Origin: Candidatus Poseidoniaceae archaeon
GTDB lineage: Archaea > Thermoplasmatota > Poseidoniia > Poseidoniales > Poseidoniaceae
Assembly: GCA_938084675.1 (NCBI GenBank)
Contig: CALKGM010000001.1
Location: 22,181 to 86,180 of the forward strand
DNA: 64,000 nt
Direction of reading: 5' to 3'
This document shows, in pieces, positions 5,043 through 53,200 of the stretch. The notes beneath the pieces were generated by a model. That model was not told the DNA's origin. It made no database searches and worked only from the letters and a program-made list of their open reading frames with translations. Position numbers and translations under genes: made by a program. Positions within the stretch are counted from its first letter, which is position 1. Every line of letters begins with the position of its first letter.

Positions 5043-5128
5043 GGTGTTGCTAGTTCTTTTTAGTTGAAAGGTCTTCCCACGGCATTCACTTCGCAACAGT
5101 GATAGGGCTGCCTCAGTGAGTCTACCAT

Positions 5129-5875
5129 ATGCCCGTTGACCGTATGCAGTGGGGAGCGGAAGAATGGCAGTACGCTGATCTCTACATGCCTGACGACCCG
5201 TCACCGTTTCAACGAAATGTTGGTGTCCCTTGCATAATGCTGATTCACGGTGGTTTTTGGAAAGAAAAGTACACGCTGGATTTGATGCAGCCCATCGCTG
5301 AAGACTTGGCTGAGGCTGGGGTTGCCGTATGGAACATTGAATTCAAGCGCTGGGCAGATGGCGATGAAGGTGTTTGGATGGACACATTGTCCGACGTATT
5401 GCGTGCGTGGGGACAACTCGCACTCCTCCCTGGAATTGACATCACACGCTCGATGGTGATGGGGCACTCCGCTGGCGGTCAACTCGCACTCATTCTTGCG
5501 GCAAAGGCAGACCGAAAACCATGGCTCGCCATTGCCCAAGCGCCTCTTACTGACCTCGTTGGTGCAGACCATGCTCGTCTTTCGGATGAAGGAGATGCCG
5601 TGCGAAAATGGTTGGGTTGTTCACCCGACGAAAACCCTGAAGCGTGGTCACGATTAAATCCCGTTGACCATCCACCAAAAACCAGCGTTCTGTTGTTTCA
5701 CGGGGAGGAAGATACCGACGTACCTCTTCTCCAATCCGAAACATATGCCCGGATTATGAAGGCAAAAGGTGCCGATGTTCAGAAGGTTTGGCTTCCTGGA
5801 AACCACTATGATATTATTGATGTAGCAAGTGATGATTGGTTGGTTCAGCTCAACGCAATTCTTGATTGGTTGTAG
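5129..5875 (+). CDS. Alpha/beta hydrolase, HGGxW type (arylformamidase/esterase-like)
   Basis: IHGGFW, GHSAGG nucleophile elbow, HGEEDTDVP (Asp), GNHY (His). Confidence 0.8.
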   Translation: MPVDRMQWGAEEWQYADLYMPDDPSPFQRNVGVPCIMLIHGGFWKEKYTLDLMQPIAEDLAEAGVAVWNIEFKRWADGDEGVWMDTLSDVLRAWGQLALLPGIDITRSMVMGHSAGGQLALILAAKADRKPWLAIAQAPLTDLVGADHARLSDEGDAVRKWLGCSPDENPEAWSRLNPVDHPPKTSVLLFHGEEDTDVPLLQSETYARIMKAKGADVQKVWLPGNHYDIIDVASDDWLVQLNAILDWL

Positions 5876-18435: not shown

Positions 18436-21400
18436 TTATTCTGTCCATTCTTCCCATTCTTCTTGGCCTGAAAGTCGGAACCACCACGTGCCTTCCTCAT
18501 CTTCCCACCATTCGGTACCATCTTCGTCAACACGATAACTGTCATCATCTTCAACGGATGATTCAGCTTCAGTTACCTCTTCGACTTCTGGTTCAGCAAC
18601 ACTTGGTGCCGGACCGCTTGGACCTGGCGCTGGGCCGCTTGGACCTGGTGCTGGGCCGCTCGGACCTGGCGCTGGACCGCTTGGGCCAGATGCTAGGCCG
18701 CTTGGACGTGATTTTGGTGATTCGTCTTCATCCTCATCATCGTAATCGTCTTCATCCCAGCCTTCATTTCCGGAACGCATGAACATGACCAACAAGACCA
18801 GCAACACAATTGCTACAAGTCCAAGAAGACCTGCTCCAACGTAATACAATGTTCCGCCTGCTTCAAAGAAACCTGCTGTTGTTCCAGTCACTTCAATATT
18901 GGAATCAACACGAACTGAACCCACATTGACACTGATTGTTTGGGGGCCATCATCTAAGGTAGTGACGGTCCAAACCTCTGAACTGATCATGGTAACAGTT
19001 GCACGTCCTGAAGCATCAACCTTGATGCTTGGAGGTACTGCGATTTCGTTGTTAAATGCGTCAAATGCCCGTATGTTAACCTCCAATGTTGCGAGTTGGT
19101 CCAATGTTGTCTTCGTCAAGTTGACTTCGAGTCGATTGACCAAACTCTGAGCGGAAACATTGATTTCCAAGACCGACTCAACATTGGTGTTAACACGATA
19201 AACAAGAGTGTGGATGCCTGCGACTTCAGCAGCGTAGGTGTATGCACCGTCCGTTTCGTCGTCTGCTATCAATCCAGATACTTCTCCTTCGTTCTCTGTC
19301 CACTGCACGTTCTGAGAGAATACGTTCCCGTATTGGTCTGTACCGTTGACATAAAATTGGATGAAATCACCAGCGGTTGGGTTTGAGTTTGTAACCGAGG
19401 CCATGACCGTTGTCGGCACACCATGGTACACGGTGAAACTCACTGAATCCGAGATATTGTATCCAGTTCCACTAATGCTGAAAGCAGTCACGGTATAGGT
19501 GCCTACATTCTCTGGGATCCAACTCATATCACTAAGCAGTAAATCCGTTGTTGCATCTATGGTTTCGCCATTTGGCAGGTCTACGAGCCAAGTTAGTTCG
19601 CTTGCATCAATTCTATTGTTGTCCAAATCGTAAAGTTCAGCCATGAAATCAACACCGTAATCTGCGGTCATGTCAAAGTTCGCACCTGAAGTTTGTTGGG
19701 GGTTGGTTGCAGTTGCTGTCATGGATACGGTATGAAGGAAGCCGTGATCAACTGTGATGTTAATTGAAACAGCATGTGAAACGGTTCCGTCAAAGTAGGC
19801 TGCCGTCATGATGTAGGCATCATCGCTAGCGAAGTAAGGAGTGAATACTGTGGAGTCGCCAAGTGCCTTTTCAAGGAATGAAGAGGATTCTCCCATTGTA
19901 GGATGATCCAGGCTCCAATTAGCTTGGACATCCCACTTGTTGCCTTTAGCATCAATAGCGCGTATCTTCGCCTCGATCGTCTCGTCTGCTGTGAGGTCAA
20001 AGGTTTCCCAAGTTGACTCCACATCATCAACGACGATAATCAAGGTCTGAATTTTACCTTCAACAACTGTGATGACAACCTCTGAAAGCGTTGATTCATA
20101 GCGTGCTTCAATGGTTTTCGCACCTCGCGAAACAGGATCCCAAATTGCAGGAGAACCAGGAGTCAACTGGCCATCTGCTTTCTTGGTCCAATTATCCGAA
20201 GGTAAAATCACCGATAGGCGATTGCCACGGACGTCGACTCGAGTTGTGTTGATGTATACTCTATCATCAGCAGTCACAGATGTCGATGAAGTATTGAGTT
20301 CCAAGAACTGAATCTCTCCATGACCGACGGTGATCATCAATTCATCCGCAGCACCGGAAACAGATGTCAAATTGAGCCACCAAGTTCCAACATGGTCAGG
20401 GAAGTATTGCTGGTTCAATTCCGAATAGTTACCGTTTGTGGTCGTCCATGTCAAATTACCAGCTTCTGCAAGGTCAAGTTGGTTACCAAACTGATCGAAT
20501 ACTTCTGCAGTAATGTCACACCATACGCCAGCAGGCACAGTGCCTGTACAACCATTGAGTTCAAAGTACGCTGGAGCACCACTGGTAACTGTAATGCTGA
20601 CATCAACGAATGCACCTCCAGTAACTGCATGACGAACCTGAACGATGTGTGTTCCCGTCGAGAATGGTTGGAATACGTTCGGAGTTACTGCATTCATGCT
20701 TCCGTTTGTTGGCGTGTAAATGATGGGTTCGCCGGGAACTGCGTTTCCGTGTTGGTCGACCATTTCAGCGGTGATAGCAAGCGTTTCATCAGCCGAAATT
20801 GTCGCGGTTAGCGGTGAGACGACGAGTGTCACAGGCGCACCTGGTGTTACGGAGATGTTCTGGACGCCACATACCAAACCGAAGCATGCCTGAACTTGAT
20901 GAGTTCCTGCCGTGGACGGAGTGAACAACCCGTTAAGACCAATGGATCCTGATGTCGAAGTCCAAAGAACTGGCGGTGATTGAACCATGCTCAAATGGTC
21001 GTATGCTACTGAATTGAAGTTGACTGTAGTATCTGCATCCGTACTCACGGAGCCTGTTGGGGCAATATCAATCGAAGTAACATTTGTGGTATTGAGCAGC
21101 ATCTTAGGACGATTTTCAGCAGCAAGGGATTCACTTGATGAGAACGACGCATGTGCGTGTCCTGCATTGGCGGTACCAATCATAATCCATGTGTGGCGAC
21201 TGTTAACGGTCATCCCTTCAACTCCAATATCGAACCATGCCCATCCTGTGCTGTCTACGTTGAGAACGGTAGTAGAGATCGGTGATGTTGCGTAATCAAG
21301 ACCAGATTGCATACCCGGAGCACCCCAATTAATACCCGAAGTAGAACCGTTCCATGTTGCCGAGGTATGTGTCCAATTTGGATTCAAAACTTCATGAATT

Positions 21401-24400
21401 GAGAATGAAACTGATGTTGCCCCACCTGCGGAAGTCCAACCGTCGACGTACAATCCAAGCGATGCAGAGTGTACTTGTTGATAGACAGGGAAAGGAATTT
21501 GCCCGGTATCAAGCGACAGAGTAGCACGGCATTCGGCCGTCCACAATACTCCACAGAAGGTCCCCACTGCCAGAGCAGAGTCGCCACCAAAATTGTCGCC
21601 TCCAGACTCGGAATACAAACTGGTATCTTGGATGTTAGTATGTCCATAGGCTTCCACTTCGTTTCCTGTCTGGAAGGTATATGTGAATGTCAAATCATTA
21701 TTATCAACATGGTTTGGGGAACCAATGGCAAAACTCCATCTGGACGATGAAGGCCCAGGAATGGACTGATTGACACCTTGAACCCACCACGTAAATACGG
21801 ACCCTGCGCTCAAATTGTCGTTAAAGCGGAAGGTTGTATTGGTGATTTCAGAATCTTCCCAAGATTTGTATTTGTAGACACCGGATTCATTGGCCACGGT
21901 GAGAATGTAACCTGTAGCTCCAATGAGTGGAGACCATGACAGAATTGGACTCTGTAGAGGCGAGAGCACACCACCAGACTCCGAGTAGAGCACAGTTCCG
22001 TCAAGTGGTCCAATCTGTACCGGCTGGCTTGGAGGAATGATTCCAGCAACGTTATCGATGTATTCCAGTACGAGCGTTGGTCGCTGACTTGAGGTTGATG
22101 CGTCGGATGAATCAAAGACCAATGTTGCGGATGATGTACCCACTCGCTTGAGCATAACGGTCATGGTTGTGTTTCCATTGGCAATGTTGCTCTGAGCAAG
22201 ACTGGTAAGGTCCCAATCAACCCATCCGCTAGGAGACAATGCTGGAATTGTTGTCCGTGTGATCTCAGAAGAAGAACATGTAGGTGCGTTGGCCCAAACC
22301 GTTGAAGATTCGCTGAATGGACTGCATGCATGAGCAGAAACGGTTGTGGATACGCTTCCACTGAATGTGTTTTGATACAATCGCATGACCATTGAAGTTG
22401 GCGTCATGGCCGCAGGCCAAGGAAGGCTTGATAGGTCGTACTCGATCAAAATACGGCTTTCACCCGCACCAGCAACAGGAGTTCCTAGAATGAGATTCGC
22501 AGAACCTCCGTTGTTAACAGTGGCTTGTGAATCAATCGAAAGGTCTGGAACAGCAGGCACGACACTCGTGTCCGTGAAGATGGTTCCACGTTGAAGGGTT
22601 ATTGAATGATTACCATCGCCATCACCGGTCCCGAAATCGTCTGGATTTCGGTACTTTTGTGTTGCTGACCATTCGCCAATACGTTCATTTTGGTCTGAGC
22701 GCATACGCCAGAATACCCATTCATCGCCTTGTTCCATTGCAGAGTTAGTGACGGTATTGTTTTGAGCGTCGTAACTGGCGTTGTCGACTGAACCATTGAG
22801 TAACTCAGCGGTAGAGTAGCATTCTAAGTCCTCAGTAAACCGAGCGTTAGAAGCGAAACAGGCAACCATTTGCGATTGATTTGTGATCGTGCTATTCCAT
22901 GAGAAATCGGTTTCATTTTGTCCGGATGGACGAGGTTGTGTAGTATCCCAGAGGGTTGCACCGTCAACCGGTTGAAGGCCGGTTGGTGCAACGACAAGGA
23001 ATGGATTGGTAATCCTGTAGGTGATGTTCAGACGTGGCCGAAGATCAACACTCGGGTGTTCGCTGCTCGCAAGAGTAAGACGACCGTTTACAATCGAGTT
23101 GACCTCTTCAGGCTGCAAAATCACATTGATTCCGTTTTGCCCTCCAGCAAGAGCGTGTTGAACGAGTGCGGTGACATTGGCTGCAAATGAACCGGTAGTA
23201 TTGACCCAAAATCCACTGTTAAACGGCGCTTCAGAATCTGCCGAGTGGTATGCACCAGGACCAGCCCAGGAGGTTGTGTTTCCAGCGGGGTATGCCCAAA
23301 CCGATGATTCACTCCAAGAAGTTGTCATTTCTGAAACGGTCATGAAGACAAACCCATTAGAACTCAAAACATCCATTTCAAGGGTTGCATCCAACACTTC
23401 ATATGTTCCTGGCATCGGTAAATTTGAGAAATCAATGTCGATCAATGAACTCGTTCGCAATGCGGTATTGCTGTATGATAACTGGCTTCGACCAACAGAA
23501 AGGATGGTGTCACTACCCTTGTTGCTGAAGGTATTTCCGCTGTCTAAATACGTGTCCTGCATAACTGCAGGATACGCAAGGTCAGACACATATGCTCCTT
23601 CTTGAATCGAAAGAGTTGCATCGGTAGAGTTTATTTCCGACCCAAGTTCTTCAGGAATGAAGAAGTTTGTTGAAGAACTTCGGGGACCGAGCATTCCGTT
23701 GTTGAGGGGTTGAACCATCCACCGAATTTCTTGAGTGAAATCCAAGTCATTTGGTGGAGTAAAGGTAAGGTTCGTGAGATCAAACGAAGAAGTGTCAATT
23801 CGTGAATCATAGGTTTCTAGACCGGACATATCATCATCAGCATCTGCGAGAATGAATAGTCGCCAATCGGTAACTGTTGACTGGCCGGTATAGTTCCAAG
23901 AAAAGATGGGTTGGAACTCGGGCGTAAGTGCATGTGATGTTTGGTCCCAAACGATACTATTGGCTGCTGGCGCAACGTTTTGACCTGCTGTCACTGGAGT
24001 TGCAACCAATCCGTTTTCCCAAGTCAATGTGAGGTAGGGGCGTTCTGATGCGCTCCCTTGTGCCGAAGTGAATTTAACTAAATCTGCGGTAGGAGTGTAT
24101 GAACTGTAAACCATCAACGAAAGATGGGTTTGTCCGTTAGCGAGTGCTCCTTGAACTGCTTCAGTAACATCAAAATCCATCCAATCGTCACTTACGCTGT
24201 CCATGATGTCAACGTAACTGCCGATATCCACGCCAATGTCCCGACCACCACGGAGGGACCAGTTATTGACGCCGTCATAGGTTGTTGCATTTGCGCTCGT
24301 TGTCCAATTCTGTAACACTGGACGAATTGCTACTGGTTCGTCTTCAACAGAATCATATTCAGCGAAAAGGCTGAGTTCAGCACCACTGACCCGGGAATTA

Positions 24401-27400
24401 GCTGGCTGAGGCACCTCGCTTAGAGGAATGCGAATGAGGGCTGCGGATTGGAAACCGGAACTCGTTTCTCCAACCAGCAAGTTGGTAGCATTTTCATGAG
24501 TTGAGTCGGAACCACTGCCGTTCTCAATGACATAGGTGTCGACAAAGTTTGGAAGGTTGAGATGCGGGAGTGCTCCGTGGTGACGTAGTTCCACTGAAGC
24601 TTTTGTAGAATTGTAAACCGTTGTCGTGAGGTCTGGTATTTGGAAGTGGTATACATTGGACCAGTTTCCAATTTGGTTTGTTGCTGAAACTGCACGAACT
24701 CGCCAATACCAGGTACTTCCATTGTCCAAGTCAGATGCTGGGGTGTAGGTGAGGTTGGTTGTATCAAACCCAACATTGTTCCAAGAAGTAACTGTCAAGG
24801 AGTTAAGTGAATTGAAATCAGATTGAGTATCTAGCTGGACCAAATATCCACCGATATTCATATTTCCTGAGAACGACCAGTTCAGGGTTGGCCGAGTAAT
24901 CGGAGTCATGTCCACACCAGTTCCAATTGACCAAGACCCGTTGAGAGGGAGGACAAGCGAGGGGTTTGATGGCACAGCGTCTGAACCCGGAACATAAACA
25001 AACGAAAGTTCCGGTCGGTCGCTCATATCTGCTTCTGCGGCATAAAAGTAAGCAGTTCGTGAACTGCCTGAACCGACTCCAAGCATGCCTGCGACAAAGT
25101 CAACTCTGCGATCTTCTCGCATGGCGTTTTGTACTGCAAGAGTGACGTTCCAATCCACACGGTCGCCTTCGCTGTACGTTGATCCAATCGAAGCACTGGC
25201 GAGGAGTGAGCCTCGTTCTGCACCTTTAGCTCCAGCGGTTGCCCACGAAGTGGAACCATCTAAACTGGACCAGGTAGCATCATCATCGGACCAGTTGTTT
25301 TGATTGCTTTCCCACAGGCCAACATTTGGAGAATTAAATGGGGACGAACTCAGCATCATACTAAGATGAGCAGATTCAACTGCATATCCGTCAGGAAGGA
25401 GGTTGGATACGAGATTGCATCCAAGCAAAATAGTTGTTTCAGAAGGCAGTGTGTTATAATCCACAATAAGTTCCTCATCTCCATTGTAGTTGTCATTTAC
25501 AGCACCGCTATCGATGTAGGTATCCATACATTCCGGATATTGGTTATCATTAGTACCGTTTCCATGCTTGAGTCGGAATTCGTAGCGATCGTTGCCCAAG
25601 TGAATGCTTTCAAGGTTGGAAATCAAGAAACTAGAACTTACCCATTCGCCGTAATGGTCGTCGCTGTCCACGGTTGACATCCGCCAGAAGTACATGTTTC
25701 CAAGGTCAAGCGTGTTCGCCCCCGTCATGTTCAGCGTTCCATCGGTTGCTGAGAAGTCGCTGTCCGTCCTGGTGTCAACACGCCATGTTCGGAGGCGGAA
25801 GTCTTGGTCAGTTGCCAACTCAAAGATGATGTCATCGCCGGAAGAGGGTTGTGTCCAATTGAGGGAAGGTTGTGTGTTAGCCGACAAGTTATGTCCAGAT
25901 TTGTTCCAAATTGCAAGACCGTCAACTGGTGCAGTGAGTTGGACTGGAGCGGGGGGGGTTCCGTTACCCCACTTGTAAGTAAGTGAAAAGGACGGCATAT
26001 CTGCTGAGTTTGCTGCTTCAGTGGAGTGGAACAGAATGCTCTCGCCGTTGGTATAACTCTGGTACTTTCCACGGACTGCAAGCATCATATCAAGGGGTAA
26101 TTCATCCCCGTTGTCAAGGTAGTTTTGGACGGCTTGAGTGACATCAAAGGAAAAGGACGATGATGTTTGATTACCGTCAGCAAGTGCAACGGTTGCTGTC
26201 CCATTCCCACGACCTCCATCGTACCAAGTAATACCGGCATCGGACATCTGATTCCATGTGATTTCTTCTTCATCCCAAAGGCCTGAATCCTCCATGCCGT
26301 GCAGTGAAACAACTGGATCTCCAGAATAACTCGAGCGAGTCAACTCCATCTTTGCTGTAACGATGGTGAGATTATCATGCAGTCCAAGTTGGTCAAGTGA
26401 AGCTCGCATGTGGATTAATCGCTCTTTGTCCGAAGTCATGCTTGATTCAAGGGTTGTCAAGTCACCATAAGCAATAGATTTCGCAGTTTGACTTACCGTA
26501 GAATCTTGAATGAAATCCTCTGAAAGACCCACGGAAGACGGGTCCAACGTCATGGACGCCGTACCGTCTGCATTGTCATAAACATCGAGAGAAGGAAGGA
26601 GGAAACTTGTGACATCCCATGCCCCAATCTGACCTGTTGAGTCGATGGAACGAACACGCATGTGCATCGTAGATCCGTTCGTGAGTGATAACGAGGAGGG
26701 AAGGGTGTAGTAACCAGATGTACCGGTAGACCCAAATGTGGTTGAGAGGGTGGAGAAGAACCATTCTTGGTCGGTCGCAGAACGCCAATCATCGCTGTTG
26801 CTCAATTGGATTTCAACATCTGAACCTGTGTTATTGTCATAGGAAAGCGAGGGGGTACTCACTGGCGTGAGGAGGAAATCACTTTCCATCCAAGGGGCGC
26901 CGTTAGGTACCGGCAAGTCCGTTTCAACTGTAGGGTTAGCGTTTGGAGCGCCGCTGGTGGTGTTCAACACAAGCTCTGGGCGGTTGGAGGCAGAGGTTGT
27001 TTCCGAGAAATGGCATTCATACAGAGCACCAAGTGAGGACACGATGACTGAAAGGTTACCCATGTTGTTACGGGCTGCTGTTTGGGCAATAGAAGTCACG
27101 TTGAGTGCTACGGTTCCGTTTCCAGTAACGTGAACAGGAGGCTCCCAAACGCCGCGGTCGGATGAGCCATCTGCACCTAAATCACCCCACGCTGCGTTGC
27201 TAGCAAAAACGGCCCAGGACGCAAATGAGCCGTTCCAAGACCGCTTCATTTCTCCGGCGAAAACTGACATATCAGAAAAACCGATACTATCTGTTGTGCA
27301 TTGCAGATTTAGGGTTGCGCTGTGAATCGTATCGGACGATGTGTAGTTCATGGGGAACCGCAGAAGTAGTCTTGAATCCGCCATCACTCCAGAGGAGAGT

Positions 27401-27621
27401 ATACCGGACGCAGAGGTATTGTAAGTGTTACTCGGATTGGCCAAACTGATGTAGGTATCTGCCGTTGGGCTATGAGTGGAAACAACGTGCTGCGGGGATA
27501 TTTCATCTTCAAGTTCAGTCCACCCCTCAAGAGTTTGGGGGAGAAGAAGGTCTGCAAGAAGGAACATCAGAACAAGGACGAGCGCAGTACTGCTGCGAGT
27601 GTTTGACGGAATACGACTCAT
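18436..27621 (-). CDS. Giant (3061 aa) surface protein: ~7 DNRLRE-like modules alternating with FN3-like modules, Ig-like stalk, TM, Pro/Gly and Trp-rich tail
   Basis: Signal peptide; repeated DTYI..A.L.L..W..ATW..W..DVT..VQ..RPxLxL units separated by PxxG..PxxxW..WxWRV..GxWS units; TM near the C-terminus. Confidence 0.85.
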   Translation of the reverse strand: MSRIPSNTRSSTALVLVLMFLLADLLLPQTLEGWTELEDEISPQHVVSTHSPTADTYISLANPSNTYNTSASGILSSGVMADSRLLLRFPMNYTSSDTIHSATLNLQCTTDSIGFSDMSVFAGEMKRSWNGSFASWAVFASNAAWGDLGADGSSDRGVWEPPVHVTGNGTVALNVTSIAQTAARNNMGNLSVIVSSLGALYECHFSETTSASNRPELVLNTTSGAPNANPTVETDLPVPNGAPWMESDFLLTPVSTPSLSYDNNTGSDVEIQLSNSDDWRSATDQEWFFSTLSTTFGSTGTSGYYTLPSSLSLTNGSTMHMRVRSIDSTGQIGAWDVTSFLLPSLDVYDNADGTASMTLDPSSVGLSEDFIQDSTVSQTAKSIAYGDLTTLESSMTSDKERLIHMRASLDQLGLHDNLTIVTAKMELTRSSYSGDPVVSLHGMEDSGLWDEEEITWNQMSDAGITWYDGGRGNGTATVALADGNQTSSSFSFDVTQAVQNYLDNGDELPLDMMLAVRGKYQSYTNGESILFHSTEAANSADMPSFSLTYKWGNGTPPAPVQLTAPVDGLAIWNKSGHNLSANTQPSLNWTQPSSGDDIIFELATDQDFRLRTWRVDTRTDSDFSATDGTLNMTGANTLDLGNMYFWRMSTVDSDDHYGEWVSSSFLISNLESIHLGNDRYEFRLKHGNGTNDNQYPECMDTYIDSGAVNDNYNGDEELIVDYNTLPSETTILLGCNLVSNLLPDGYAVESAHLSMMLSSSPFNSPNVGLWESNQNNWSDDDATWSSLDGSTSWATAGAKGAERGSLLASASIGSTYSEGDRVDWNVTLAVQNAMREDRRVDFVAGMLGVGSGSSRTAYFYAAEADMSDRPELSFVYVPGSDAVPSNPSLVLPLNGSWSIGTGVDMTPITRPTLNWSFSGNMNIGGYLVQLDTQSDFNSLNSLTVTSWNNVGFDTTNLTYTPASDLDNGSTWYWRVRAVSATNQIGNWSNVYHFQIPDLTTTVYNSTKASVELRHHGALPHLNLPNFVDTYVIENGSGSDSTHENATNLLVGETSSGFQSAALIRIPLSEVPQPANSRVSGAELSLFAEYDSVEDEPVAIRPVLQNWTTSANATTYDGVNNWSLRGGRDIGVDIGSYVDIMDSVSDDWMDFDVTEAVQGALANGQTHLSLMVYSSYTPTADLVKFTSAQGSASERPYLTLTWENGLVATPVTAGQNVAPAANSIVWDQTSHALTPEFQPIFSWNYTGQSTVTDWRLFILADADDDMSGLETYDSRIDTSSFDLTNLTFTPPNDLDFTQEIRWMVQPLNNGMLGPRSSSTNFFIPEELGSEINSTDATLSIQEGAYVSDLAYPAVMQDTYLDSGNTFSNKGSDTILSVGRSQLSYSNTALRTSSLIDIDFSNLPMPGTYEVLDATLEMDVLSSNGFVFMTVSEMTTSWSESSVWAYPAGNTTSWAGPGAYHSADSEAPFNSGFWVNTTGSFAANVTALVQHALAGGQNGINVILQPEEVNSIVNGRLTLASSEHPSVDLRPRLNITYRITNPFLVVAPTGLQPVDGATLWDTTQPRPSGQNETDFSWNSTITNQSQMVACFASNARFTEDLECYSTAELLNGSVDNASYDAQNNTVTNSAMEQGDEWVFWRMRSDQNERIGEWSATQKYRNPDDFGTGDGDGNHSITLQRGTIFTDTSVVPAVPDLSIDSQATVNNGGSANLILGTPVAGAGESRILIEYDLSSLPWPAAMTPTSMVMRLYQNTFSGSVSTTVSAHACSPFSESSTVWANAPTCSSSEITRTTIPALSPSGWVDWDLTSLAQSNIANGNTTMTVMLKRVGTSSATLVFDSSDASTSSQRPTLVLEYIDNVAGIIPPSQPVQIGPLDGTVLYSESGGVLSPLQSPILSWSPLIGATGYILTVANESGVYKYKSWEDSEITNTTFRFNDNLSAGSVFTWWVQGVNQSIPGPSSSRWSFAIGSPNHVDNNDLTFTYTFQTGNEVEAYGHTNIQDTSLYSESGGDNFGGDSALAVGTFCGVLWTAECRATLSLDTGQIPFPVYQQVHSASLGLYVDGWTSAGGATSVSFSIHEVLNPNWTHTSATWNGSTSGINWGAPGMQSGLDYATSPISTTVLNVDSTGWAWFDIGVEGMTVNSRHTWIMIGTANAGHAHASFSSSESLAAENRPKMLLNTTNVTSIDIAPTGSVSTDADTTVNFNSVAYDHLSMVQSPPVLWTSTSGSIGLNGLFTPSTAGTHQVQACFGLVCGVQNISVTPGAPVTLVVSPLTATISADETLAITAEMVDQHGNAVPGEPIIYTPTNGSMNAVTPNVFQPFSTGTHIVQVRHAVTGGAFVDVSITVTSGAPAYFELNGCTGTVPAGVWCDITAEVFDQFGNQLDLAEAGNLTWTTTNGNYSELNQQYFPDHVGTWWLNLTSVSGAADELMITVGHGEIQFLELNTSSTSVTADDRVYINTTRVDVRGNRLSVILPSDNWTKKADGQLTPGSPAIWDPVSRGAKTIEARYESTLSEVVITVVEGKIQTLIIVVDDVESTWETFDLTADETIEAKIRAIDAKGNKWDVQANWSLDHPTMGESSSFLEKALGDSTVFTPYFASDDAYIMTAAYFDGTVSHAVSINITVDHGFLHTVSMTATATNPQQTSGANFDMTADYGVDFMAELYDLDNNRIDASELTWLVDLPNGETIDATTDLLLSDMSWIPENVGTYTVTAFSISGTGYNISDSVSFTVYHGVPTTVMASVTNSNPTAGDFIQFYVNGTDQYGNVFSQNVQWTENEGEVSGLIADDETDGAYTYAAEVAGIHTLVYRVNTNVESVLEINVSAQSLVNRLEVNLTKTTLDQLATLEVNIRAFDAFNNEIAVPPSIKVDASGRATVTMISSEVWTVTTLDDGPQTISVNVGSVRVDSNIEVTGTTAGFFEAGGTLYYVGAGLLGLVAIVLLVLLVMFMRSGNEGWDEDDYDDEDEDESPKSRPSGLASGPSGPAPGPSGPAPGPSGPAPGPSGPAPSVAEPEVEEVTEAESSVEDDDSYRVDEDGTEWWEDEEGTWWFRLSGQEEWEEWTE
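18604..18687 (-). repeat. 4 x 21-bp tandem repeat encoding GPSGPAP
   Basis: In-frame GPSGPAP x4 with synonymous variation, in the predicted cytoplasmic tail. Confidence 0.9.
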
Positions 27622-37040: not shown

Positions 37041-39806
37041 TCATCGGAGTCGATTCACTCGTGCAAGGAGTCCACTCGGTTCTTCATCGGCCTGTATCTC
37101 AACTTCCACTTCAGGCTCGGCAGGGGCTACTCCGCTTTGATGAGCAGCACCTGTGCTCCGGGAACGAACCGCATACACGAGAAGGCTCGCCAAAATGGCT
37201 AGAAGAACTCCTGCAGTGAGCAGGCTCGTCTGCACATTAATTGAAGAGCCCGTAGACTCTTCATCCTGTGAGTTGGTATCGGCCGTTGACGTCGTCAAAT
37301 CAAGGGCGTAAGTGGCCACTACGTCTCGGTCTAATTCGTCATCATGAACCTTAAGTTTCACCATTACAATATCGCCCACATCTGATGAGATTGGGATTAA
37401 TGTCACGCATTGAGCAGTAGAAGTTCCTTCATTCAAACATGAATGGCTGACGTCAACCTCTTGCTCGCCTAAGAATACCGTTGCATTGGTATTCAGAACT
37501 CCATCAACATCTGAAACACTCCATTGCATTGTTGCAGTGTTGCTATCAGTAACACGTTGTATGCTCGTCACCGTTGCAAAAGGAAGGTCCCCTACTGGCG
37601 TTACTGTGATTGTTAGCGGATGAGTGTAGGAGGTTGTTCCGTCTGTGACATTGATCCAAACCATTTCAAATTGGCCATTGAAATCTTGCTGCGGAGTAAT
37701 GAGAAATTCATTCAAAACCCGTTGAACTGACAGTTCTGAATGGCCATGGGATGATGACCAAGAAAGGACATCTCCATCAATATCGTAGGCCATCAAGGTG
37801 AGGTTGAGAACGTGAGTTGAATCTTCATCCATTGTGATATTAGCCCAAGCAGATTCGTTGATGGTTATTGGGTCGTCCACCGACTCTACAAGAACTGGAA
37901 TCTCCAACTCAATCCCGGGCGTCGTGCCATCACCTACCAACGCGTCCAGAACTACAGCTCCGTATTGGTTAGGAAGGGGTGATAAGGTGAGAATGCCGTT
38001 TTCCACCGAGAACATTACGGGACCCTCTGCTCCTGAATTTGCTCCGTTGACCGATACGAGAAGTGATTGTCCTTCGGGGTCGAGAACCACGTCGCTGAAA
38101 TCAAAATCAAGATTGAATCCATCTTCAAACAGGACCTGTTGAGGGACTGTCCCGATTTGAACTACCGGGTCGTCAACCGGGGAAAGAAATACACGAAGCG
38201 TGATGTTCTGTTCGTCAACAACTCCACCATCACTTCTTAGTTTCAACTCAAGTGAACATTCACCTAGCCATTCTTCTTCTATTGCGTGATTGACTTCAAC
38301 AGTGAGTCCATCTCCACCTAATGTCACCCCGAAGTGGGATGAATTGGGGCCGAACAACGTTGCATCAACCGCACGGACAAGTGTACCGTCAGAGTCGGTT
38401 GCAGCGTCGGCAATATTGAAAATTGTACTTCCATGTTGAGGTAAATAAATCGTTGGAGGTGGAGTTGTAACAATCATAGGAGTGTTGGTCCTTGCGACCA
38501 TGAACTCTACTGTTGAAGGAGCACCTTCCACCGAAATACGCATCCAAGCCTTGTGAGACCCAGGAGCTACGGGGGCCATAGGAAATTCACACAACGCCGT
38601 ACCGTTGACTGCAAGTGAACCGTTCGCCGGCCATGATTCATCAACCCAACCGCAATCGACACTCACATCGTAATTCCCTGGCAGTTCTGTGTAGTTCACA
38701 CCGTCCCGTAACGTCCAATTGCTTTGTATCACAAATGTTTGTGTTGCATTCAGGGCATTTTGGGTATCAGGTGAAAAGGTCGTGTTGTTGAGAATAATGA
38801 AAGAACTTTGCTCAAGATTTTCGTCAACATAGGCATTTTGATCACTCACAATATGGGCTCCTTCAGCCCGATTAAACGCATCACGAAAACGGTCAATTTC
38901 ACCGTATAATACTGCATCAAGGTAAGCGATAACATGTTGAGAACTCAATTCAATTTGGGCACTTTGGCTCATCGTTGCATCCCCGTCGCTTTCAAAGAAT
39001 GACTGAGAATCTTGAAACTGGTAGTGATTTGCACCCAAAAGATGCATCCAGTGCCAACCGTACCCTCCTGCATCCTCAAGCCGCTCCATTGTAACTGTGG
39101 ATGGAGCCACTTCATCTACAGTTCCGGTGATAAAGAATCCAGTGTTTGGTGAAGGGAAAACAGGAGAATATGATGGATTGAACCAGTCGTTATTTGAATT
39201 GAAACCATCCAAATCAAGACCAAGGCCGAACAAACTTCGAGGAGGTTGAACAGTATCTGCACGTTGACTTAGATTGAAGTAAGGAATCGCAACGTAAGCC
39301 GCCGCAGCACCCTTCCCATGACCGCCTACACCCCAATGGTCCACGTCGATATTGCCTGCACTCCCCATTACACGGAGATTGGTTTGGTTTTGAGATTCCA
39401 TGACCTCTATGATGTCGGTGAGTAGGCTCAATGTTTCTTCAACATCGGTCTCGTCTTGCATCGGTTGTGTCACGACAACGATGAAACCACGCTTGGCTAA
39501 TTCTTCAACAAAAAGCGTGTAAGCATCTATGTTTTCCCCGGAATCTCCAATAAATACCGTCCAAGGAAATGGCCCGTTACCAGCCATATCCTTATCTTCC
39601 CCATCATTCATTGCCGGATATACCATTCTCACTTCAGGTGAAAACACTCCGTCAAGGCGAAATTCAGTCCAACCAACTGGAAAATCTACTCCATCGTGGC
39701 GCTCTTCGAAATTGGGATTCTCCGTCAAGAGAGCCGAACAAGGTGCTGCAAACATCAGCACGGCTAATACTATCCCGACCCAACGTTGGGGAATCATCGG
39801 CACCAT
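37041..39806 (-). CDS. Secreted alpha/beta-hydrolase-fold protein with cadherin-like (tandem-95-like) repeats and C-terminal TM
   Basis: Signal peptide, GPFPW..LAKRGFIVV, GGHGKGA elbow, GANHYQF, PVDDP/SVDDP/PVGDLP repeats, TM. Start 39806 or 39797. Confidence 0.75.
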   Translation of the reverse strand: MVPMIPQRWVGIVLAVLMFAAPCSALLTENPNFEERHDGVDFPVGWTEFRLDGVFSPEVRMVYPAMNDGEDKDMAGNGPFPWTVFIGDSGENIDAYTLFVEELAKRGFIVVVTQPMQDETDVEETLSLLTDIIEVMESQNQTNLRVMGSAGNIDVDHWGVGGHGKGAAAAYVAIPYFNLSQRADTVQPPRSLFGLGLDLDGFNSNNDWFNPSYSPVFPSPNTGFFITGTVDEVAPSTVTMERLEDAGGYGWHWMHLLGANHYQFQDSQSFFESDGDATMSQSAQIELSSQHVIAYLDAVLYGEIDRFRDAFNRAEGAHIVSDQNAYVDENLEQSSFIILNNTTFSPDTQNALNATQTFVIQSNWTLRDGVNYTELPGNYDVSVDCGWVDESWPANGSLAVNGTALCEFPMAPVAPGSHKAWMRISVEGAPSTVEFMVARTNTPMIVTTPPPTIYLPQHGSTIFNIADAATDSDGTLVRAVDATLFGPNSSHFGVTLGGDGLTVEVNHAIEEEWLGECSLELKLRSDGGVVDEQNITLRVFLSPVDDPVVQIGTVPQQVLFEDGFNLDFDFSDVVLDPEGQSLLVSVNGANSGAEGPVMFSVENGILTLSPLPNQYGAVVLDALVGDGTTPGIELEIPVLVESVDDPITINESAWANITMDEDSTHVLNLTLMAYDIDGDVLSWSSSHGHSELSVQRVLNEFLITPQQDFNGQFEMVWINVTDGTTSYTHPLTITVTPVGDLPFATVTSIQRVTDSNTATMQWSVSDVDGVLNTNATVFLGEQEVDVSHSCLNEGTSTAQCVTLIPISSDVGDIVMVKLKVHDDELDRDVVATYALDLTTSTADTNSQDEESTGSSINVQTSLLTAGVLLAILASLLVYAVRSRSTGAAHQSGVAPAEPEVEVEIQADEEPSGLLARVNRLR

Positions 39807-39852
39807 ATTCACGTCTTCCCCCTTTTGTTCCCTCTCCTTAGAGGCTTCGCTG

Positions 39853-40860
39853 TCATGCATATTCACTTAGAGTGGTTTCGGCGACAATCAATCGATTCAA
39901 CAACAACTCAAGAGAAGGAAGGTCGGCTTTTCGCTCAGGTGCCCAAAGGTGCTTCCAACACGCAAGATGTTGAGCAACGAGCAACCATCGCCCGTCCAAA
40001 GGCATCGCAAGTATTCGATCAACTCGTTCGTCCAACTCACCTCCCATGGCAGAATAAGAAGCATGGAGAAGCACATCTACATCAAAAACAGGCGTCCCAG
40101 ATTCAAAATTCACAACAACATCAGGTTCTTGGGATGTTAACGAATCCACCCACGGACCGTCTCCGAGTTCACGTTTACCCCCCAAAAGATGGATCTGCCC
40201 TCCATTTTGGGACCAAGCGAGAGCTGTTGAACGCGCAGCACCTCCACCACCCAGTAATCCGAGAACGTTACCGCGAGGATGAAATCCATGATGCGCCATA
40301 ACATTGCAAAGCCCGAGACCGTCAAAACCAGCACTCCACCAGCCTTTTCCGTCCCACCGAAGAGCATTGATACTCTTGATTTCCCGCGAGTGATCAACGC
40401 AAATCACAGCCCCGGAGTCCAATTGATGTTTGAGTGGTGAGGTCAAATTCATCCAAATCTCGTTTTCAAACATCCGGGTTGGAAGGTTTTGAGCATGCTT
40501 GGGAGGAACTTGGCCAACAAACACCTCGCCTTTAGGGGCAAGCGCGGCTGCAGGAATTTTCACTGCTCGTGCCGCGGCAACTGCTTTGTCCAAAAGAGCA
40601 GTTGTTCTAAATGTTCCAAAAACGGCTTGTGTCAGGTCCCACTCTTGAGGATGAGGTACCGAACCCGCGTACCCCCAAGCCAAAGCGTCTGAAATAGAAG
40701 GAACGTCCACAAGTTCCATCTTGAGCATCATTGAACGCCCTGACAAATGGAGATGGTCGCATACCAATGACATCAACAGCGGAGACAAACTGTGCCTGAT
40801 GGGCGAACCCGCAATCCCATACCGGATTTCGCCCATGATTCCCCGATTACTTTCGGTCAT
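39853..40860 (-). CDS. Divergent shikimate dehydrogenase (AroE)-like protein
   Basis: GSPIRHSLSP, NLTSPLK, SINAL, GFDGLG, LGGGGAARS, DGRWLLVAQ. Confidence 0.75.
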   Translation of the reverse strand: MTESNRGIMGEIRYGIAGSPIRHSLSPLLMSLVCDHLHLSGRSMMLKMELVDVPSISDALAWGYAGSVPHPQEWDLTQAVFGTFRTTALLDKAVAAARAVKIPAAALAPKGEVFVGQVPPKHAQNLPTRMFENEIWMNLTSPLKHQLDSGAVICVDHSREIKSINALRWDGKGWWSAGFDGLGLCNVMAHHGFHPRGNVLGLLGGGGAARSTALAWSQNGGQIHLLGGKRELGDGPWVDSLTSQEPDVVVNFESGTPVFDVDVLLHASYSAMGGELDERVDRILAMPLDGRWLLVAQHLACWKHLWAPERKADLPSLELLLNRLIVAETTLSEYA

Positions 40861-50082: not shown

Positions 50083-50130
50083 GTCCACACCAAGGAACTC
50101 CAGTTTGAAAGGGTTCGCTTTTGGCTAGGG

Positions 50131-50227
50131 GTAGCCCAAGGCAGGGAGCCCTGTTAGGGGCTCCCCGCTGGGATACAGCCTCACGGCTGCAGACACCTGC
50201 TTTCAGGTGAAGTATTGTCGTAACAAC
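50131..50227 (-). other. Cluster of four RNA hairpins immediately 3' of the giant gene (structured 3' UTR or terminator-like element)
   Basis: Minus strand: GUUGU-UACG-ACAAU; CACCUG-AAAG-CAGGUG; UGCAGCC-GUGA-GGCUGUA; GCGGGGAGCCC-CUAACA-GGGCUCCCUGC. Confidence 0.7.
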
Positions 50228-50239
50228 TCAACTGAGGCT

Positions 50240-53200
50240 TCAAGCCTTCTTGTTGAAAGCCAAGTTCGACCACTTTGTCAATTCTGCACCGTTGCCGTTA
50301 GGCGGAGCATAGGTGATGGTGATCGTGACACCGGTGAGTGGTGTACCGTCAGGTGCGTGGGTGCGAACGAAGATTGTATCTCCAGAGTTGAAGGTCGAGA
50401 TTGACCGATTACCGTCTCTGTCAACAGAATCAACGAACGTTACAAACGCATCACTGTTGGCCGGATTGAATCCGTACACACCAGCGCTTTCAGCAAGATT
50501 GACTGTAACCACACTCTGACCGCCAGTTGAATTCTGATAGATCACACGGACTTCAACAGCTTGTGTTGCAAGTGCTGTTTGTGCGTTCATAACAGAGATT
50601 CTCCAGTGACCTTCATCAGCGTCTACACCGTTCACATCTTCCATTTGGAAGGTGATACGAGGAACGCCCTTGACGTCGGTCTCAGCAAGCGATGATGCCC
50701 AGACATAGATGACACCTGAGAGAACCACTGTGATTGCAACCATAAGGATGGTAGCGATTACAGGGCTGACTGCAGTTTCATCTTCCTCGATACGTTCCAC
50801 AACTTCTTCATCTTCTTCATCAGCACGGCGGCTGGAGAAGGTGAGTAGGCTCACGAAGAGACCAGCCATAGCCACAGCGATGATGCTTGGGGCAAAGGAT
50901 GGAACTGCGCTTGCACCGACAGTGTCGACAACTGTTGGGATGTCTTGTGCGGTTGCAAGGAACGTAGTGTCAGCGGTATCTTGGTCTGCTGCGTTACATG
51001 GGTCTGCTGTTGGAAGCGAGGTCATGACGTTGTTACACCAGTTGCTGTCTTCAAGCAATGGACGACGGATAGAGGATGCTGTTGCATCTTGTCCATATCG
51101 GCCAGGTGCAGACCATGGCTCATCGGATTGAACACCGTTGATCACACGGTAGTGCGATGCTGGGTTGTCAGCGATGAATCGTTCTGTTGTCGATTTCGTC
51201 AAGTCACATGGGTTGTCCAAACAGGTTAGTACATCCATTTCTACCCAAACATGTGTGGTATCTCTGGTGACGTAAACGTCCTCAGTGAGTTTCACAGCGG
51301 AGTTGTAGTCAGGTACATCGTAATAACGAGTTTGTTCAATGTCTGTGTGTCCATCTGAGTGGTAGGTCACAGCAAGCATGTGGTCGTAGCGGTAAGGTCC
51401 TGGATCACCAGCGCCGTCGATTGTAACGGTGACTGGGATGTAGGTTCCTGTCATGACGTTGGTAACTCCGTTGAAGCTGAATCCTGTCACACCATCAAAG
51501 GCATAGTCTGGGACTTGCTCAGGGACGTTCGTAACCTTCACACCGATGGTCTTGGTTGCAACACCTTGCTCGTATGCCGCAATTGGCATCAAAGCAGTAT
51601 CGTAGTTAGGGATATGTGTGTTGTATTCGCCATCAACGATAGGTGCTGTTGGTGTGTCACGTAGAACTAGAGTGATCTCACAGTATGAGCTGCCGGTTGG
51701 TGGGATTTGGTGAATACCACCGTTGTTGAGGTAGTCTCGCTGTTCGTTTGGAACATCCGTTGCAGCATCTTCAATCAGGTCAAAGACGAGGTCGTCTCCG
51801 ATGATGGTGGTTGTGAAGTAGTTCGAGTATGTGCATTGGTCAGTAGATTCAACGGTCCAAAGAAGGTCATCCATATCGTGGTCAACATCGGCCTTGATAG
51901 CTGAGAGGTCAAACGTTAGGTTGTCTTCGTTGGTATCGTCTTCTGTCATGACAAGCTTCCAGGCCTGGTTGATAGGCAGGTTAGCTTTGTTGACAATCGT
52001 TGTACCGTTTGCTGCATCCCAATTACGGATCACAGGTGCATCGTTGACTGGTGATACTGAGAAAGCAACATCAAAGGTCTCTGCATCGGTGTTCTCTGCT
52101 CCATCATCAGATAGAGAGAGTGTTACCATACATGTGCCACCCTTTTCGTTTGCTGTGTTCTCGGTAATGGTCAATTCGTTGTTGACAACATCAACTGTGA
52201 ATGCTTCACAGGTTGAAGGGATGCTTGCGCCCCATGTGTAGGTTTGACGGCTTGGCGATTGCTCGTTAGCCATGTCCCGGATGTAGGAGCGTGTAGCGTT
52301 GGATACATCACCAAGGAACTTGGTGTGTGTTCCAAACCCTTCAGGCAGGATGTTGTTGAATGAACCATCTTCGGAGATGATCGGCATACAGTCTGTTGCG
52401 ACTCGGTCATTGTTACAGATAACTGGCTTGTCGTTCACATTGTTCACCGTGTAGGTGATGTTGTGGCTGTCGCTTAGTCCGTTGCTGTCTGTCACTTCAA
52501 AGGAGAAGACAACTGTTCCGAATTGGTCAGCGAGCGGCGTGATGGTAACATCTTGGCCGTTCTGAGCCCAATCAATGAGGACGTTGTCAAAGGCCACAAG
52601 GGTTCCTTCGGTAACGACCCAATCAAGGTCAATTTCAGCATCTTGAACATCGTCCACAAGGTTTGTGAGACTGAATGTGAATGCCGAAGAGTCTTCGTCC
52701 TTGTCAAACGAGGATAGACCATCAGATGGAGCAGTTGTTGCTTCAGTATCAATAACAGGACATGCACGTTGGATGTCAACGGTTGCTCGGACATCTGTTG
52801 TGTCTCCGGCTCCAGCAGTGTAACTGTCGTCAAATGCTACGTTAGTAGCCATTGAAACATCTTCGATGGTAGCCCAGTCGTAAGCACATTCAGCAGGTGT
52901 CTTCAGCATGATGTCGTAGTTCTTAGCTGCACCAGCAGTTGCAACACCCTTGTAGGAGCGGTATACCAAGACTTCATCGTTCAGGTTTCCAGTCATCAAA
53001 TCATCATGGTCCAATTCAACGGTCATGAACTTGGTCAAGTTCTGAAGCGTTGCGGTCTGGTCCAAAGTTTGGGACGGGTGAACGGTTGTGATATCTGCAG
53101 TGGTTTCTTGTTGAACAATTGCGACGATGTCGATTTGGCTCGGCATTCCACCAATACGGCTCCATGGGATGGAGATTTCACCAAGTGAAGTGGAGAAGTC

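Follow-up and report, generated by a model that had tools for sequence, protein, structure and literature searches.

A giant archaeal surface protein that ends in a conserved type IV pilin module, and the case for an internal class III cleavage site

How does a type IV pilin come to lie at the end of a surface protein of 4,602 residues, and what becomes of it there? The question is raised by a gene in a stretch of 64,000 nucleotides (the window) from a Candidatus Poseidoniaceae archaeon (assembly GCA_938084675.1, contig CALKGM010000001.1, positions 22,181 to 86,180), whose genome comprises 1.94 Mb in 49 contigs and is 91.6% complete. Few archaea of surface oceans are as abundant as those of Marine Group II, which are uncultured; the gene is among their largest and physically ties an adhesin to the pilin system. 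The fusion itself is real, conserved and kept by selection. Its sequence leads us to propose, with a probability of roughly 0.55, that the product is a polyprotein precursor that would be cut by a class III signal peptidase.

The gene is the only long frame at this place; it lies on the reverse strand, ends at window position 50240 and continues without interruption past position 64000, so that its start, with 16 codons (about 48 nt), falls outside the window. Across the whole contig the open frame has 4,603 codons, or 4,602 aa counted from the first ATG, and the N-terminus reads MLGNKKNQNKTVFGGIGIALLLCALMALM. Just three hydrophobic regions appear in the whole protein by a 19-residue Kyte-Doolittle scan, namely residues 11-29, an N-terminal signal or anchor by hydropathy, and residues 4385-4403 and 4430-4448, of which the former represents two overlapping scan windows (4377-4395 and 4385-4403). 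The protein is strongly acidic (net charge about -322) and contains many Ser, Thr, Gly, Asn and Asp, and a Pfam scan of 4,581 aa returned Pilin_N, a sub-threshold Cadherin_5 and no other domain.

The C-terminal region can be read in order, all on the reverse strand. A membrane-proximal ectodomain (50918-51514, approximately residues 4179-4377), marked by VPDYAFD..YIPVTV..HMLAVTYHSDGH..VEMDVLTCLDNPCD..IPTVVDTV, is conserved in orthologues and in the homologues without a hairpin considered below (alignments A2 and A3). The sorting-signal-like motif VPSFAPS (50885-50905, residues 4382-4388) then lies at the outer face of a predicted stop-transfer transmembrane helix, TM1 (50837-50884, residues 4389-4404, hydropathy peak 2.06). 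The 16 residues of TM1 are followed by SS and by the basic cluster RR on the cytoplasmic side (50825-50830, residues 4407-4408), and both the translation and the DNA place VPSFAP-SIIAVAMAGLFVSLLTFSS-RR at 50905-50825. The acidic cytoplasmic linker ADEEDEEVVERIEEDETA (18 aa, 50771-50824) ends in E-T-A and is presumed to be a class III leader with A at position -1, so that the putative processing site, marked here and below with an arrow, reads A↓VSPVIATILMVAITV. The pilin alpha1 helix or H-domain, VSPVIATILMVAITVVLSGVIYVWASS, forms TM2 (50690-50770, residues 4427-4453); the V of VSPVIATILMVAITVVLSGVIYVW lies at 50770, and from it 176 aa run to the stop. This V(+1) is residue 4427 of 4602 and thus does not stand near an N-terminus behind a short leader as in ordinary precursors. 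The last 149 aa form the pilin head, beta-rich by its sequence pattern (50243-50689, with the stop at 50240-50242). A preliminary description of this DNA, made from its letters, had given the sequence and coordinates of this region exactly, and the topology that it drew, with the passenger outside, the linker inside and the C-terminal domain outside again, agrees with hydropathy and with the RR behind TM1.

The same description had identified the second hydrophobic segment as a class III or Pilin_N element, an assignment borne out by profile scores above cut-off and by alignment with free-standing pilins. Taken as the last 221 aa, the module scores 33.7-34.7 bits against Pilin_N PF07790 (cut-off 25.2; E 3e-8 to 7e-8) and 34.1-36.4 bits against TIGR02537 (cut-off 20). 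A profile made from alignment A1 (32 rows) finds as its best solved match 8FJ5, the subunit of the type IV pilus of Haloferax volcanii (E 7.6e-17), with further matches to Natrinema PilA2 8GI2 (9e-13), 9MYG (1e-12) and Iho670 5KYH (1.7e-4). The Cuniculiplasma filament subunit 8REY is matched up to query position 154 (E 2.9e-6). The identities of 8FJ5 and 8REY as pilus and filament subunits are those given in PMC10334743 and PMC12448462; the precursor of the former carries DDSA ahead of VSPVIG.

Free-standing pilins of relatives (179-215 aa) share 31-37% identity with the module (E 1e-7 to 2e-14), in alignments that run through alpha1 and the greater part of the head, as far as query position 199-204 of 221. 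The head also aligns with the metagenome representatives P0043, P0045, P0067, P0109, P0114, P0120 and P0135. The genome itself encodes a free-standing pilin, MKNENRNEEA↓VSPVIATILMVAITVVLAGVLYVWASSLAE, whose alpha1 is nearly identical to the internal helix, and two more that read ..RDDEA↓VSPVIATVLLLAITV and ..REEQA↓VSEVLGVV. For the homologue P0004, the nearest ESM Atlas clusters by features are Thermoplasmatota Pilin_N (0.96), which adds nothing independent.

The join between passenger and pilin is not peculiar to one genome. A search with the 221-aa module in 60 relatives and the giant gene's own genome gave 42 full-module matches in 40 of the 61 genomes. They cover three families of the order, with two other families at 44-52% identity, and 27 lie inside open frames of 4,227-5,055 aa; among the shorter frames (228-3,763 aa), several begin less than 200 nt from a contig end. 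The preliminary description would have been contradicted by orthologues with a stop between TM1-RR and the pilin, and none of the 42 matches contains an internal stop. In an even draw of 250 genomes from the phylum the module was present in all 30 genomes of the family, in frames of up to 5,515 aa, and a library of 1.84 billion proteins yielded 563 matches, among them P0002, P0007, P0008, P0015, P0018 and P0025 (4,372-5,559 aa), with the module at the extreme end. Existing annotation of such fused homologues includes "FlaG/FlaF family flagellin".

What selection keeps can be seen at the site. Counted over 39 orthologous loci, the stretch that begins with the first basic residue behind TM1 and ends at A(-1) is always in frame and spans 18-31 aa: 18 aa at 27 loci, 19 at 2, 20 at 5, 21 at 2, 22 at 2 and 31 at 1. 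Position -1 is A in 39/39 and position -3 is D (29) or E (10), while position -2 is A (26), T (5, the giant gene included), E (4), G (3) or R (1). Archaeal prepilin peptidases are described as accepting G, A or S at -1, with a charged -2 critical, and Table 1 of the same source gives the H. volcanii PilA processing sites as DAVS, DSAV and RAVS (PMC4371748). A site of the form [DERK][GA]↓[AV] is available in 34/39 orthologues, reading either of two adjacent registers, and each of the 13 distant copies has the canonical register. Linkers of other families are basic, with the endings (D/E)(D/E)G or xEA, and their sites still read DEDG↓VSP, KEEA↓VSP, NEKA↓VSP or DREA↓VSP. When the genus is compared with other families, mean identity is 0.88 for the alpha1 helix, 0.77 for VPSFAPS, 0.54 for positions -3 to -1, 0.40 for TM1, 0.35 for the rest of the linker, 0.30 for the head and 0.20 for the 30 residues ahead of the motif. 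Cleavage is favoured because residues at the site are conserved though the loop varies in length and charge, because alpha1 is kept at pilin grade while TM1 shows ordinary drift, and because the pilin is nearly identical across the paralogues described below.

The mechanism that we propose would run as follows. The N-terminal signal would take approximately 4,380 residues of adhesin-like passenger over the membrane until TM1 halts transfer just behind VPSFAPS, and the short loop would remain cytoplasmic. The pilin H-domain would then re-insert N-in/C-out as it does in prepilins, leaving the 149-aa head outside, beside the passenger's last domain. At the cytoplasmic face a candidate A24/Arc_PepC_II peptidase may cut ..E-T-A↓V-S-P to give a mature type IV pilin, and the passenger would be left with VPSFAPS-TM-RR and an acidic tail, a tripartite signal of the kind processed by archaeosortases, for which the candidate enzyme is a second, unclassified archaeosortase. 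The freed pilin would serve as a structural subunit and enter a type IV filament or a pilin platform, and its head would probably remain near the membrane-proximal domain of the passenger.

Such a route needs a peptidase and an assembly apparatus, for which the preliminary description had advised searching the genome, and candidates for both are there. A search of the genome with PF01478 (Peptidase_A24) gave nothing even at E 10. Weak PF01478 matches in 8 of 61 relatives pointed to a polytopic protein of 331 aa, whose orthologue in the genome of the giant gene is the candidate class III signal peptidase (contig C1, 7166-8158, reverse strand, outside the window). It reaches 32.4 bits against Arc_PepC_II (cut-off 29.9) and has homologues that bear the name A24 family peptidase C-terminal domain protein; its DHNDRRVPN and GGADAK can be read as the two aspartyl motifs. 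A phmmer comparison with PDB sequences gave chance matches only, and NCBIfam models gave nothing on its orthologue. By genus, the candidate occurs in the pilin-bearing genera and in g10. For assembly, the genome has four T2SSE secretion ATPases, and a T2SSF platform protein (48.7 bits) is encoded in a fla-like operon that lies 22 kb away from the giant gene (C1:108.6-115.4 kb). A free-standing pilin encoded at one end of contig C10 was considered as a further member of this operon, which lies at the end of C1, and was dropped because in the relative G034 the pilin adjoins the same C10 genes and not the operon. As a side remark, surveys keyed to Peptidase_A24 would score Poseidoniales genomes as being without the enzyme, since only Arc_PepC_II reveals the candidate.

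The cassette of motif, TM1, loop and alpha1 is not restricted to one passenger either. Proteins of 1,167-2,360 aa with other passengers also end in cassette and head, with the pattern (T/S)P(S/G/A)F(A/D/V)P-TM-basic loop-(D/E)x(A/G)↓VSP(V/I)(I/V)(A/G).., and Pilin_N scores above cut-off at internal positions in them. Their passengers include a glycine-rich domain of the ALK/LTK type (above cut-off in P0099, below it in P0070) and, in P0150, a sub-threshold CARDB. In the phylum draw such carriers belong to families f36, f45 and f46 of the Thermoplasmatota. The cassette genes of the distant carriers have no archaeosortase or ATPase gene as a neighbour.

One distant carrier genome, G138, has ten cassette genes with frames of 1,498-2,424 aa (loci L104-L113, at C26:8020-35729 and on C15, C37, C2 and C1), of which five form a tandem array on a single contig. 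Its nine complete copies share a 161-aa pilin that is 98.4% identical in protein and 90% identical in DNA; over 36 pairs the mean nonsynonymous divergence (dN) is 0.009 and the mean synonymous divergence (dS) 0.68, a ratio of 0.013. Upstream, identity is 69% over 90 aa, and the downstream DNA is unrelated. The identity of these pilins is the product of long-standing purifying selection and not of recent conversion, and near-identical pilins are what would be expected of one shared structural subunit. The site is canonical, (D/E)(D/E)DG↓V with one copy DKDG, and the loop is basic, not acidic.

The most serious alternative is that the hairpin is never cut. TM1 and the pilin-derived helix would then form a two-pass anchor, the class III features would be inherited from a captured pilin gene, and the head would serve as a last extracellular domain packed on the membrane-proximal one. 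Homologues without the hairpin speak for such an arrangement. In P0031, P0036, P0039, P0051 and the fragment P0038 the membrane-proximal domain is joined directly to the head, with neither VPSFAPS, TM1, loop nor alpha1, and another anchor, SSGLPSIG-TM-RRE, stands at the end. From this direct joining it follows that the two ectodomains are neighbours and that the hairpin of approximately 75 residues is a cassette between them. The head in these proteins remains covalently on the passenger and is functional while attached, and so can work without being a free pilin. These homologues (416-707 aa) are Sec-secreted and, as an observation in its own right, carry TSP3-like Asp-rich repeats between head and anchor.

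Several further points tell against cleavage. We know of no class III site that works 4,426 residues from an N-terminus. The giant gene and four other orthologues read (D/E)-T-A-V and depart from the FlaFind rule, where a charged -2 is said to be critical (PMC4371748); Thr at -2, already raised as a caveat when the locus was first described, is a mild objection that stands. The pilin fold of the head is a prediction from sequence, and PF01478 itself has no match on the candidate peptidase (E 3). Neither here nor in G138 do assembly genes or an archaeosortase lie directly next to the gene, other surface proteins of the window are plain type I anchored with cytoplasmic tails, and the genus-level co-occurrence reported below is weak evidence, confounded by descent among carrier genera that are kin.

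Against an uncut hairpin stands the pattern of constraint. A mere anchor would be expected to drift as TM1 has done (0.40), yet alpha1 stands at 0.88. All 39 orthologues, and the 13 distant copies as well, keep a small residue at -1 and an acidic one at -2 or -3 even as the charge of the loop flips, and in G138 a textbook DEDG↓V site accompanies a head held at a dN/dS of 0.013 over nine passengers. A peptidase of broad specificity would, moreover, have to be excluded from an exposed canonical site. On balance we regard the uncut anchor, and with it the role of the head as a packed terminal domain, as rather unlikely, and retain cleavage as the preferred reading.

Alternatively, the pilin could be made mainly from a start codon in the linker, with the read-through fusion as a by-product. 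The codon at position -7 (window 50789-50791) is ATG in 32/39 orthologues, which would give a 7-aa leader M-x-(D/E)-D-(D/E)-x-A, with GAGGA-like purine runs 8-14 nt upstream, and the arrangement looks like an upstream gene with a C-terminal signal fused to a downstream pilin gene. In the giant gene this codon is ATC, and an in-frame GTG lies at -10 from V without a good Shine-Dalgarno sequence; the preliminary description had noted that GTG as a possible internal start. The codon exists, and as a general route initiation fails: position -7 is Ile or Leu in the giant gene and six other orthologues, 6/39 have no in-frame linker start at all, and distant carriers mostly have none. The purine runs follow from Asp and Glu codons anyway, and the 0/42 stops and frame-keeping length changes would not be required of a by-product. 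The ATG at -7 is probably a relic start codon from a time when the pilin had a gene of its own, with a hydrophobic residue kept in its place, and internal initiation as the main source of pilin is improbable.

The preliminary description had also read the frame as one uninterrupted ORF, with sequencing error as a caveat to be checked in reads, and public runs agree with the ORF. Twenty runs from 13 studies contain the stretch, 7 of them possibly the source. A DNA contig, possibly from the source itself, covers 50100-51600 with two substitutions, and a 430-nt contig from an RNA library covers 50503-50932 and is identical; both are without indels. Such RNA-library contigs over the junction are no proof of transcription and do not distinguish one transcript from two. 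That a lost stop or an assembly frameshift has joined two genes can be dismissed as having next to no chance, since the identical join occurs in 40 of 61 genomes from independent assemblies and in metagenome clusters of several sources, no indels occur over the stretch in the four runs compared, and no evidence in favour of an artefact was found among relatives, metagenome clusters or public runs.

If the pilin is cut free, what becomes of the passenger? The layout of motif, 16-aa helix and RR is the generic tripartite one, and the preliminary description had named it VPXXXP-CTERM. That label does not hold. TIGR04143, the VPXXXP-CTERM model (30-bit threshold), has no match on the motif even at E up to 10, and its sole match in the genome, of 16.6 bits, is elsewhere on contig C23. 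PGF-CTERM models likewise have no match on the motif. ArtB is absent from the genome, the best TIGR04144 scores being 15.9 and 12.7 bits (cut-off 150). The first P is not conserved outside the family, with VASFAP and VTSFAP in family f3 and TPSFAP, TPGFDP and TPAFVP in distant copies, and the conserved core is (P/A/T)SFAP; SFAP occurs in 38/39 orthologues and SFIP in one. In the giant protein the motif is also internal, with 194 residues behind it and not at the extreme C-terminus, although the proposed cut would leave the passenger's signal with a tail of 18 aa.

The broader idea of a sorting signal fares better, owing to a true C-terminal VPSFAPS on another protein. This is a second secreted protein of approximately 600 aa with a signal peptide and an OmpL47-type beta-barrel domain (58 bits), which ends ..GASLDAPG(L/T)VPSFAPS, a helix of 16-17 aa and QRKTRD-stop, with 27 aa from motif to stop. 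This ending is found in the genome of the giant gene, where the gene is cut by the end of contig C7 (approximately 37350-37430, reverse strand, outside the window), and at 21 loci of relatives, L088:9345-11204 (reverse strand) being a full-length example. The NCBIfam sorting-signal models have no match on its C-terminal signal, which looks from its sequence like an undescribed one, and our analysis points to an unclassified archaeosortase signal, VPSFAPS-CTERM.

Archaeosortases that may act on it are encoded. PF09721 was negative in the exosortase search, with its control positive only in M. jannaschii, and TIGR04178 was used instead. When the preliminary description listed archaeosortase among the genes to look for, what proved to be present was ArtA (TIGR04125, 96.4 bits, cut-off 75), along with PGF-TM-basic protein ends, and a second family member of no named subtype (33.1 bits, cut-off 23; G000:C37:14088-15134), ArtB being the exception. 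The unclassified enzyme perhaps serves the VPSFAPS signal; a direct link between it and the motif was not found. In G016 a match that codes for VPSFAP lies 2.4 kb away from the archaeosortase; it is out of frame with the local ORFs and was taken as chance. By genus the second archaeosortase is present in g1 (34/36), g2, g3, g4, g9, g11 and g12 and in none of g5-g8 and g10, and the module is found in the same genera minus g11 (g1, g2, g3, g4, g9 and g12) and is absent from g5-g8 and g10. Among the 60 relatives the module is confined to genera with pilins, peptidase and second archaeosortase.

These elements can be combined into a route of surface display, which we offer tentatively and regard as unlikely in its entirety. 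Many adhesin precursors would share the same cassette, their identical pilins would polymerise, the archaeosortase would free the adhesins, and the head, in contact with the last domain of an adhesin, would carry or position it on the filament. If this is true, a class III signal inside a protein and a polyprotein as source of pilins would each be seen for the first time, and archaeosortases would be functionally linked to type IV filament systems. Cleavage at the internal site would by itself overturn the FlaFind-type rule that class III signals are N-terminal, and pilins would be hidden at the ends of large proteins, labelled "pilin N-terminal domain-containing" or "flagellin". The occurrence of the cassette on passengers of several Thermoplasmatota families, together with the extreme purifying selection, suggests a general mechanism and not a curiosity of one gene. 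Filament genes of Marine Group II have been proposed to serve particle attachment and not swimming (Rinke 2019, PMC6461757).

Known systems share parts of this arrangement. Archaeal Pilin_N (DUF1628) pilins, for example H. volcanii PilA1-6, have the same (D/E)-x-A↓VSPVI(A/G)xILMVAITV H-domain and a small beta-rich head. Like the pilA1-6 genes, which are described as not linked to assembly genes (PMC4371748), the giant gene is unlinked to such genes. Unlike PilA, it carries the signal 4,426 residues inside a Sec-targeted protein and behind another transmembrane helix, so that the 'leader' is a whole adhesin, and has Thr at -2. The likeness to PGF-CTERM/ArtA and VPXXXP-CTERM/ArtB lies in the succession of motif, helix and basic cluster; the signal of the giant protein differs in being internal, with 194 residues beyond it, and in having an enzyme that is a candidate only. 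Modular pilins of Streptococcus sanguinis bear an extra module behind the pilin, covalently attached, and the pilus-tip adhesin PilY1, which goes with minor pilins, is encoded by a separate gene. Common to all is a large adhesive module functionally tied to a type IV pilin, whereas here the adhesin precedes the pilin and, in the proposal, the cut that matures the pilin would also part the two. PilY1 is treated in Makarova 2016 (PMC4858521). Finally, the substrate-binding proteins of the Sulfolobus bindosome carry class III signals (PMC4371748), so that there too such signals mount functional surface proteins and not filament subunits alone; unlike in the giant protein, the bindosome signal is N-terminal with the functional domain behind it.

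The literature searched, which included the texts, without supplements, of PMC13705601, PMC4858521, PMC6461757, PMC6864105 and PMC6336850, gave no account of a class III signal inside a protein or of a pilin ending a giant protein; the pilin and type IV pilus family tables of Makarova 2016 and of the 2026 type IV filament survey could list such proteins. Annotation pipelines already flag the domain, and the mechanism would be categorically new if the internal cut and the archaeosortase link hold. Separately, the metagenome representative P0128 (199 aa) has two hydrophobic segments followed by ..KDEAA↓VSPVVGVILMVAI, and is a second example, on a small scale, of a class III-type site away from the N-terminus.

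The surroundings of the giant gene are archaeal, and the gene for the PolD small subunit adjoins it. A membrane protein of housekeeping type has its nearest named homologues in Candidatus Poseidonia, which places the organism, by the names of homologues, in Marine Group II (Poseidoniales). The window holds other surface proteins, all on the reverse strand. A cadherin-like protein of 941 aa (37041-39866) and a GDSL lipase of 981 aa with TSP3 repeats (2259-5204) each have one C-terminal transmembrane helix, a basic cluster and a long cytoplasmic tail, the simple mode by which surface proteins are anchored in this genome. Another giant surface protein, of 3,061 aa (18436-27621), contains six CBM96 modules (175 bits) and a PSGPAPG repeat tract and ends in an acidic, Trp-rich tail without a transmembrane anchor; next to it, a protein of 868 aa without a Pfam match (15825-18431) has a similar tail.

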